Below are positions 15,001 to 18,000 of a stretch of DNA of 21,150 bases, in pieces (within the stretch, counting starts at the first letter, position 1; every line of letters begins with the position of its first letter). The stretch is from a virus (lineage: Duplodnaviria > Heunggongvirae > Uroviricota > Caudoviricetes). The stretch spans positions 1 through 21,150 of the IMG/VR virus record IMGVR_UViG_2648501392_000022; one strand, 5' to 3'. Made by a program: the position numbers.

Positions 15001-18000
15001 AGTCAACAAAAGAACTGACGAGTTGAGTCCGACGCTCAATCGTCTGTATCGATCTTCTCGCTACTGTTCTCATGCTAGTCTCCTCAACACTTCACTGGCT
15101 GTGCAGTGAAGGTACAAAAAGCCACTGATGATAACAGCGTCATCAGTGGCCCTTGATGGTGATAACCGCAGTTACCTAAATAGTATGATATTACCTTACG
15201 GGTAATTCTTCAACGATTGCTCTGAATTGAATAGTCTTGAAGTGCTATGAACAGCACAAAACAGCGCTAATCACCGCCCCAGTGGCGGCTAAACACTTCA
15301 AAATGTTGGACAGAATCAGGACGTTAGAGGTACTACAATATGCACGTAAAATGCACGTGAGGTATTTTAAATTAGAAAAATCATTAATATTCAATTGGTT
15401 AAGAATTTTTCGGATACGGGTTCAACTCCCGCCAGCTCCACCAATCATGATTGGACGGTATAAGGACAACACCAATAAAAACAGGAAGTTAGCAGTCTCA
15501 GCAGGACACCGACCAGACGGTGAGGAGACATAAAAGAATACGCAAAGGAGCCGCGGCTCCTGGTGACATGAAAGCCCACAGATGTGGGCTTTTTCGTTGA
15601 TGGTCAGAACGACCAGTTCACACCAGCTACCCCGTTCCACGGGGATTCCACACCGGCACCATGGCTATACCCCACCCCAAGATGCCCGCTTAACGTACTG
15701 CTGAATGAGGCTTTAATACCTGCCTGGTATATTCCACGTCTGCCCGACAAATCATTGACGAAATTACCGTCACTATTCACTTTCACCCGGTTATCATCGA
15801 CAAATTCTTTGCGCACAGCCGCCTTCAGCCACGGCTCAACTTCCATACCGTTCCCCAGACGCATGTTGTAACTCAGCGTTGCACCCAGTTCACGATATAA
15901 ACTGCGGGTATCGACTGATTTCGATTCCATGCCATTGGATAAATGATATTCAGGGTTATCAGCGGTGAACCCCCGTTAACGATGCATACGGCGTCAGGTT
16001 CCAGTTACCATCGGTAAATCGCATCCCGGTTTCAATGTGACCGCCCAGCCCGTTGCTGCGATAACTGCCGTTGGCGGCTCCACCGCTGCCAACCGTGGAG
16101 CCGCGAGCTTCGGTACCTGCTAATACCAATAAATTACCGCCATTTTCCAGCAACATATTGGTCGCTAAATTGCCGGAAATGGAAAAAGTGCCGTACTGGT
16201 GAGTACCGCTGATTTCAATACCGTTAGCCGTGCTCGTCTGGAGAGCGGCACCGCTGTTCTGGACGATATCTGTCGCTTTGCCATTATCGTTAACTGTCAG
16301 CGTACCGCCTTCATTGATCTTTGTTTTTATTGCCTCTCCGTTAGCTGAAACTGTTTGTATTCCGCCGTCGTTAATCGTTGTCTCATTCGCCACCCCCTCG
16401 ACGATTTGTTCGCCGCCGGTGAGCGTCGTGCCTGTCGCAGTGGCTTTTGTTTTGACGATCTCCCGTCCGCCCGTATTGACCTGTGTTTTGTCAGAAGAGG
16501 TGTCTGACTCCACGGTTAACACGCCGCCATTTGCCAGCAGGATATTGTTCGCCGCACCCTGCTCGATGCTGAACGCGACGCCATCCGCGCGTGTTCCTGT
16601 GACCCGCGTCGCCCTGGTGGTTGCAACCAAAGCGCCCTGGCTACTCTGCTGTATCCCCGTTGCGCTGCCTTTCTCCCGCACATCGAGTGTGCCGCCGTCA
16701 TTAAGCACCGAGTTTTCAGCCAGACCGCCCTCATTAACTACCTGTGAACCGCCATTAATAATGGAACCTTCCGCTGTCCCGTTTGCCATAATTTGTTGTA
16801 GGCCAGAGACGATATCGGTATTGATCGCCTTACCATAATTCTGAACGGTTTGCGTACCGCCATTGATGTGCGTTTTATCTGTTGACCCACCATCAACAAT
16901 TTGTTCACCACTTTCAATATTTGCCTCAGTGGCTAATCCATATACCGTTTGCTTGCCACCTTTGATATTTGCTTTATCAGAAGTGGCACTGGCATATATT
17001 GTTTGGGTGCCAGCACTATTGAGTACAGTGCCAACATCTTTTCCATAAACATCCATTTTGCCGTTGGCATTAATAATCGTATCAACTGCCCGGGAACCAG
17101 TGACGACTGTTAATGAGCCAGCATTTTCCAGCACTACATTTTTAGCTTCTGAATTCCTGATGTAGAAAGCATCACCATAACTGTTGGTTCCTTAGATAAG
17201 TGTTCCGGAAGTCGTGGAAGCAATTAATGCGCCGCCGGATTGTTGCTCAACATGCTTAGCCTCACCACCGTCCTGAACCTCCAGAACGCCACCATTATTA
17301 AGTCTGGAGCTATCTGTTTTAGCCTCCTTCTGGACAATCAGCTTACCGCCAGCATCAATGGTAGTATTTTTCGCCGAGGTTTTAGCCACTACCGTCAGTT
17401 CGCCGGTATTTTCCAGCACAACATAATTAGCTTCACCTCCGGTAATAGTGAAGTGAGAGAGCTTGTTCATCCTTCGATATCAGTCCCTGCGCCCGTGTTG
17501 GCAACTAAAGCAATGCCCGTCTCCTGGTTAACCCCATGTGCAATACCGCCGGTATAGACAATCAGCGAGCCTCCGGCGCTAATATTGCTGCCAGTTGCCG
17601 TACCATCTTTCTCAACAACCTGCCGGCTCCCGGAGGATATAATTGTCGTGTCAGCTTTCCCGCCGCTCTTGATATTTTGCGTTCCGCCGTTGATATTGGT
17701 ACCCGTGGCAATACCATGATTATTAATATTCTGTGTACCACCATTGATTATGGTATTGGTCGCGTTTCCGGTAACATCCATTACCCCGCCGTTATCTATT
17801 CGGGTCGCATCAGCTTTAGCATTCGTTAAAACTGACATTGTTCCTTTATCTTTAATAATTGTCTTATTTGCCGAACCATATGCGTTTATGTCTAAATGAC
17901 CACCGTTTTCCAGCAACACATTGTCTGCCACGTGATTGTGGATGGAGAATGCACCTTCACTAATCGTACAGCTCACCGTCGTACCGTTAGTGTTTGTTTT

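Follow-up and report, generated by a model that had tools for sequence, protein, structure and literature searches.

How a short piece of ssrA, the gene for transfer-messenger RNA (tmRNA), came to stand beside a phage integrase, where the rest of that gene lies, and to which gene the orphan terminator behind the fragment belongs are the questions raised by a 21,150-nt stretch of Caudoviricetes DNA (IMG/VR record IMGVR_UViG_2648501392_000022, positions 1–21,150), here called the window. We conclude with high confidence that the junction in the window is attR, the integrase-proximal end of a lambdoid prophage of ~48 kb with type III effector genes, which occupies the 3′ end of ssrA in a chromosome of the Escherichia coli E110019 type. 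The attachment sites (att) are named from left to right along the direction of ssrA transcription.

The junction centres on a 27-nt core, CGGGTTCAACTCCCGCCAGCTCCACCA, at 15417–15443 on the + strand, which reproduces exactly the final 27 nt of intact ssrA as found in E110019, CH458 and WP3-W18-ESBL-07. This displaced ssrA 3′ end comprises the 3′ half of the T-arm, the 3′ strand of the acceptor and the CCA end, lies in the same orientation as ssrA, and is the sole copy in the window even when three mismatches are allowed. Directly to its left, the nine bases at 15408–15416 (TTTCGGATA) agree with the corresponding bases of ssrA (TTTCGGACG) at seven positions, and left of 15408 there is no similarity to ssrA beyond chance (the best local alignment is a 7-mer, equalled by 734 of 2000 shuffles). 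The sequence there is phage DNA, as in the initial annotation, which had described the core as preceded by phage sequence merely resembling ssrA.

One could suppose instead that a functional ssrA lies immediately upstream and has the 27-mer as its regenerated end, or that the 27-mer matches by chance. A permissive Rfam scan (701-nt search) does align 15352–15443 to the tmRNA model RF00023 with an E value of 1.9e-5, which might seem to speak for a gene at this place; that match, however, scores 18.6 bits where the gathering threshold is 47, and it passes over 278 positions of the model, so that only the 3′ T-arm and acceptor are aligned. ARAGORN finds no tmRNA and no tRNA in the window, the sequence left of 15408 bears no relation to ssrA, and a match to the 27-mer with up to three mismatches arose in none of 100 shuffles. 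Both forms of this explanation are refuted and retain practically no probability. A full-length RF00023 match with a tag reading frame is absent, and the window holds a fragment of ssrA rather than a tmRNA gene.

The intact gene is found beyond the window, where the prophage has its other end, that of the tail-fibre and effector genes. The window is ~99.9–100% identical, in two pieces, to the chromosome of E. coli E110019 (NZ_CP035751.1), where ssrA occupies positions 3465819–3466181, directly past smpB (16320–16682 in L003, the E110019 stretch with the intact gene that we used for comparison). ARAGORN recognizes a 363-nt tmRNA with the tag ANDENYALAA, and the gene in this lysogen is identical at 363 of 363 positions to ssrA of prophage-free strains. 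The displaced CCA end, at record position 3514574, is 48,393 bp downstream of the true ssrA end at 3466181, and the interval is filled by a lambdoid prophage: past the intact ssrA follow a DinI-like gene, tail fibres, espM2, espW, NleG-like genes, sodC, a full lambdoid structural block, lysis genes and Q, and then the window. The expectation that the intact tmRNA gene would sit at the other prophage end was therefore borne out, and the search for the same core at that end, which had been proposed as a check, returned a second copy as the 3′ end of the intact gene, with no complete ssrA directly upstream of the first. NZ_CP035751.1 differs from the window by an extra 1.3-kb IS3-family element at window position ~12214–12216, upstream of xis and int, and by a few single bases, such as a run of C7 versus C8 near 2039 in the frameshifted Q gene; the window thus comes from a near-identical genome or assembly and not from that exact record.

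Relatives without the prophage display the empty site. In the prophage-free E. coli CH458, ratA, smpB and ssrA are joined directly to sequence that matches 15444–15700 with three mismatches, followed by the same ypjA fragment as in the window. This contiguity identifies the sequence to the right of the core as the original ssrA downstream region, including the palindrome and terminator that the initial annotation had tentatively assigned to it when it proposed alignment with a prophage-free locus. In WP3-W18-ESBL-07 the region behind ssrA is an 88%-identical version of 15444–15594, after which comes glaH, with no ypjA, and the same trailer also directly follows an intact ssrA in E. ruysiae, E. 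whittamii, Escherichia sp. E1V33 and Leclercia. The genes on the two sides of the core agree with this division: to the right are chromosomal genes (ypjA/ehaD fragments, ypjCB, tRNA-Ile and the gab operon), and to the left is an annotated lambdoid early region with a frameshifted Q, helicase, primase, repressors, xis and int. The same boundary directly past the CCA is also where CP4-57 ends in a K-12-type strain and an unrelated element ends in O157:H7, and both have kept the same trailer. Matches to 15594–15700 alone were set aside, as they come from a paralogous autotransporter fragment at the minE locus that is irrelevant to the ssrA junction.

With both ends and the empty site in hand, the limits of the exchange can be drawn to the base. 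Native ssrA leads through the 27-nt core into phage DNA (CTTTAAGAAGGAC...) at attL, and phage DNA leads through the core into the native flank (ATCATGATTGGAC...) at attR, in the window. A three-way comparison of attL, attB (the empty bacterial site) and attR confines the identity between attL and attR to 27 nt; because phage and ssrA differ at 15415–15416 on the left (TA versus CG) and the sequences diverge directly past the CCA on the right, the crossover is confined to these 27 nt and would have occurred somewhere in the identical block. The adjoining int-side arm of the phage attachment site (15074–15416) is 99% identical to records of Escherichia phage PhiR12, where it also lies beside int and the same cargo genes, and is absent from prophage-free relatives. 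Besides the diverged ssrA-like 9-mer at 15408–15416, this arm contains two ATGCACGT repeats, at 15340–15347 and 15351–15358, 11 bp apart and without further copies in the window, and the opposite arm carries a TACACGT/TGCACGT pair at the same 11-bp spacing (L003 16776–16793, +94 to +111 beyond the core). These pairs are plausible candidates for arm-type sites of the integrase, which has an Arm-DNA-bind_2 domain.

The native flank raises the second question, that of the terminator, which the initial annotation had placed about 130 nt downstream of the core. A hairpin with a 9–10 bp stem does start 127–128 nt past the CCA end: this predicted intrinsic ssrA terminator, at 15570–15594 (+), has stem strands at 15570–15579 and 15584–15593, a T-run at 15590–15594 and a folding energy of −14 kcal/mol. 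Ahead of it, the palindrome GGAGCCGCGGCTCC at 15547–15560 (+), the fourth hairpin of the trailer, folds at −10.3 kcal/mol. Both stems have changed in a compensatory manner. Other E. coli and Escherichia lineages carry the palindrome variant GGAGTCGCGACTCC, in which GGAGCC..GGCUCC has become GGAGUC..GACUCC, and in the terminator stem of other lineages GCCCAC/GUGGGC is swapped for GCCCGC/GCGGGC. Of 64 distinct trailer variants (alignment A3, loci L022–L140), 58 have GC and 5 have AU at terminator column pair 138/146, and across all of them 99.1% of the helix cells are paired.

A different gene nevertheless converges on this hairpin. The C-terminal β-barrel fragment of ypjA/ehaD in the chromosomal flank (15604–15930, − strand; Pfam Autotransporter 2.8e-11, also in RefSeq) has its stop codon at 15604–15606, only ~10 nt from the hairpin, which could accordingly be the terminator of convergent ypjA/ehaD and not of ssrA, with its place behind the displaced fragment being incidental. 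An A-run flanks the stem and the − strand folds as well (−24.7 kcal/mol for the two-hairpin segment), and a weak − strand Rfam match to isrB (22 bits) reflects the same structure. On the other hand, the U-tract is 5–6 nt long (UUUUU) on the + strand and only 3 (UUU) on the − strand; in the 64 variants the hairpin is always found with the trailer, whereas the DNA past the T-run is unrelated; and WP3-W18-ESBL-07 keeps the hairpin behind ssrA and its trailer without any ypjA. Because it is retained in that ypjA-less strain, in the order ssrA, trailer, terminator, glaH, the hairpin belongs with ssrA, and we regard its assignment to ypjA instead as quite improbable. The hairpin at 15570–15594 is best read as the native ssrA terminator, at which ssrA transcription would be expected to end; as only ~10–12 nt separate it from the stop codon of the convergent ypjA fragment, transcription of the − strand may end there as well. 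As evidence for small RNAs, the − strand matches to isrB and to rsmX (18.5 bits) at 15569–15686 were rejected, being far under their gathering scores and driven by the terminator hairpin. The ypjA/ehaD gene itself, annotated as a pseudogene, is split into several open reading frames, at 15604–15930, 15959–17134 and 17467–18993 (window 15604–18993, − strand). Its damage is independent of the prophage, because the same 108-amino-acid C-terminal fragment is present in prophage-free CH458.

These observations suggest the following course of events. The phage attachment site (attP) would carry a 27-nt copy of the ssrA 3′ end, and the phage tyrosine integrase, probably the product of 12733–13911, would have exchanged strands inside the 27-nt identical block. 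The native 5′ 336 nt of ssrA now run into the phage-derived last 27 nt and then into a spacer and terminator of the phage (attL, which lies outside the window), so that the tmRNA is unchanged; the original 27 nt, the ~150-nt trailer, the GGAGCCGCGGCTCC hairpin and the terminator have been pushed 48 kb downstream. The genes ahead of them there are xis, int and two cargo genes, and the ssrA promoter no longer feeds the displaced trailer. As reconstructed, attP would read TTTTTCGGATA-core-CTTTAAGAAGGAC, and the attB restored by excision would read ssrA-core-ATCATGATTGG.

Several points count against this reading of the locus. No free or circular attP joining both arms was found, so attP is reconstructed rather than observed, and no exact junction was found in IMG/VR. 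Each phage record shows just one of the two arms, and those of PhiR12 are linear and terminate at the core or close to it. RefSeq marks the portal gene as frameshifted, the large terminase gene as having an internal stop and Q as frameshifted; the prophage looks defective and may not be mobile today. Finally, a consensus promoter and terminator scan did not list the + strand terminator, for which folding and conservation were used instead; the miss is probably explained by extension of the stem through A/T pairs, which leaves only four T in the 8-nt tail window.

The native trailer is more strongly conserved than we had expected, and it deserves separate discussion. Beginning after the CCA end and closing with the T-run of the terminator (15444–15594, + strand), and contiguous with ssrA in prophage-free chromosomes, it folds with z = −3.0 against shuffles into four hairpins and the terminator. 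A scan of viral contigs with an exact, invariant 18-mer from the trailer returned at least 119 loci, and among 123 trailer loci with enough flank, an intact ssrA precedes the trailer in 39 and displaced fragments of diverse lengths do so in 84. The 64 variants have a nearly invariant central ~100 nt and share the terminator; as the collection was seeded by an 18-mer of the trailer itself, it is biased toward conserved copies, and helices 2 and 3 are invariant partly for this reason. In a five-helix model of these variants, 97.7% of pair cells are paired, versus 41–52% with the partners slid, and 63 cells are compensatory, versus 21.5 in shuffles; in helix 1, one pair alternates between GC and AU and another among AU, UA and CG. 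E. coli and Leclercia share 89% identity in the trailer and 80% in smpB, and only ~30% of positions match in the smpB–ssrA spacer; between E. coli CH458 and WP3-W18-ESBL-07, the trailer is 88% and smpB 99% identical. Trailer types do not follow the species tree, a mismatch that could reflect recombination at the hotspot or a mobile origin. A permissive scan assigned the trailer to no Rfam family, and no open reading frame is conserved across the variants. One small candidate frame (ATG at 15447, 28 codons, TAA end at 15531) was rejected, as its codon 5 is a TGA in the common GGTGATAGG variants and the differences among variants suit hairpins, not codons.

From these patterns we would put forward, as a doubtful but not negligible possibility, that the pre-tmRNA of enterobacteria has in 15444–15594 a conserved and structured 3′ trailer whose role is specific to its sequence: it might signal processing, give rise to a small RNA or bind a protein. 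If so, integrations into the 3′ end of ssrA would cut the trailer off from the ssrA promoter and swap in an arm of their own, and lysogeny at ssrA, including that of CP4-57 in K-12, would change more than gene order. The trailer could merit experiment if it is undescribed so far.

An alternative is that the trailer we call native is not ancestral at all, being the fossil arm of an earlier ssrA element or still the attP arm of some phages. The arm that replaced it gives this idea some substance. Folding indicates a phage-supplied terminator at L003 16808–16835, ~125–150 nt after the regenerated ssrA in attL, ahead of the dinI-like gene and thus at a distance similar to that of the native one, and the attL spacer (L003 16683–16840) resembles the native trailer (15444–15594) in register, with 24 of the first 45 nt identical where 13.5 are expected (equalled by 5 of 20,000 shuffles). 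A lenient global alignment of the two was significant as well (22 of 2000 shuffles), but a strict local alignment was not (104 of 2000); given these mixed results, we keep the resemblance as a weak side observation. The discordance of trailer types with the species tree, as in the CH458–WP3 and E. coli–Leclercia identities above, would also fit a mobile origin, as would some viral contigs in which an intact ssrA and trailer are followed directly by prophage cargo and tail genes, although the borders of IMG/VR prophages may simply be over-extended. Set against this are the position of the trailer behind intact ssrA at element-free sites in several Escherichia species and Leclercia, and the covarying hairpins, which point to selection on the trailer sequence itself. 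We therefore consider both forms of this alternative unlikely. In such contigs (L023 8700–12800; L031), the intact ssrA and native-type trailer precede an EcoRII restriction-modification pair, a GIY-YIG protein and tail-fibre genes; either their predicted borders are over-extended, or they represent phages that integrate beyond the terminator or carry the trailer.

The phage genes nearest the core are xis, int and two genes of unknown function. The excisionase gene xis (12569–12778, +; PHROG phrog_2917 'excisionase', E 2.5e-41, no Pfam match) overlaps the start of int (12733–13911, +), which is read toward the att site and encodes a tyrosine integrase with an arm-type DNA-binding domain (Pfam Arm-DNA-bind_2 4e-21, Phage_integrase 2.1e-19; phrog_1 9e-65), named 'Arm DNA-binding domain-containing protein' in RefSeq. 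Between int and the core lie two minus-strand open reading frames, in keeping with the int-proximal cargo that had been noted in the initial annotation. The first (13953–14720) encodes 255 amino acids and matches phrog_3307 (E 1.4e-59), with no Pfam, PADLOC, NCBIfam or PDB match; by tblastn it was found only in PhiR12 phages (97%) and SSU5-like phages (~30%). The second (14732–15073) encodes 113 amino acids, of which residues 4–109 match phrog_2594 (E 8.7e-26), with no Pfam, PADLOC or PDB match. The 81-amino-acid start given by RefSeq is probably too short, because the PHROG match covers the 113-amino-acid form. Just upstream of the start of this gene (15073), a long − strand hairpin at 15118–15155 (GCCACTGATGA...TCATCAGTGGC) is followed by TTTTT; it looks like a terminator and would block transcription entering from the att side, which is the tail or late side in a circular phage. 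As the only Rfam matches in the window at gathering thresholds, full-length copies of the prophage small RNAs AgvB (anti-GcvB; 676–737, +, 96.5 bits) and STnc100 (738–928, −, 144.7 bits) lie beside the Q/antiterminator region.

What the junction offers is first of all a boundary: the right end of the prophage is fixed to the base, between 15416/15417 and 15443/15444, and the host tmRNA is left intact. Its reading as attR accounts both for the tmRNA-like fragment and for the orphan terminator beside ypjA. It is also an aid to annotation, as RefSeq has no feature over the fragment and the products of excision become predictable. Because ssrA is among the most strongly transcribed genes, a terminator between it and neighbouring prophage genes can matter, and in E110019 the phage's own terminator stands between ssrA and the dinI-like gene. 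A study of Streptococcus pyogenes M1UK reports that altered read-through of the ssrA terminator raises expression of the phage toxin gene speA (PMC9951164).

Comparison with known elements places the prophage among several that use this gene. A close counterpart on the ssrA side is CP-1639, the cryptic Stx1 prophage in ssrA of E. coli 1639/77 (AJ304858), which is listed as ssrA-integrating in a publication that counts ssrA among the integration sites of Stx phages (PMC8065619). From the core through the spacer and phage terminator to dinI, the ssrA-side junctions of CP-1639 and E110019 share 99.3% identity, whereas the int-side arm described here (query positions 1–364) is unmatched in its record, and the E110019 prophage carries type III secretion system effector genes and, in the annotation read, no stx gene. 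The int side instead resembles Escherichia phages PhiR12_1 to PhiR12_5 (PV340549–PV340554), in which int, the two cargo genes and the int-side arm are 97–99% identical to the window. In PhiR12_5, however, the core is followed by a CP4-57/P4-like arm and not by the native trailer, an arrangement that we read as a tandem array or as a record that includes flanking DNA. In other genomes (L018 and L141–L146), among them six further contigs met in the search for a free attP, the same int-side arm and core likewise lead into a CP4-57/P4-like arm with its own terminator, AGCCCGCAC..GCGGGCTTTTTT, in place of the native trailer, which indicates tandem arrays of elements at ssrA.

CP4-57 of E. coli K-12 shares the target, the right boundary past the CCA and the displacement of the same trailer beside ypjA. 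It differs in its geometry, which is the opposite of that seen here, with intA directly after the regenerated ssrA, and in the decay of its displaced core; it supplies its own terminator ~46–80 nt after the CCA. For PhiNP of Citrobacter rodentium, a 25-bp ssrA 3′ end has been shown experimentally to be attB, and the validated attP/attB core, GGTTCAACTCCCGCCAGCTCCACCA, is our 27-mer minus its first two bases, although PhiNP is described as a myovirus and is not lambdoid (PMC6456863). With the int–xis–attP region of lambda, the prophage shares an xis that overlaps int, the reading of both genes toward the att site, an arm-binding domain in the integrase and candidate paired arm sites on both arms. 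Lambda, however, uses an intergenic attB, whereas here the target is the tmRNA gene, and two cargo genes and ~340 bp separate int from the core.

The locus follows the textbook pattern for elements that enter a tRNA or tmRNA gene, and its site is well known: the tmRNA gene is an integration hotspot for multiple elements in E. coli (PMC10121019). That a regenerated gene and a displaced fragment mark the two ends of an island is the principle behind Islander (Hudson, Lau and Williams 2015, PMC4383910), and the E110019 locus presents the same features: one end has the intact ssrA and the other a 27-nt 3′ fragment in direct orientation, the element between them encodes a tyrosine integrase, and relatives have an empty attB. 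Nothing of substance differs from that pattern, the only detail of this locus being that int lies at the end with the displaced fragment.

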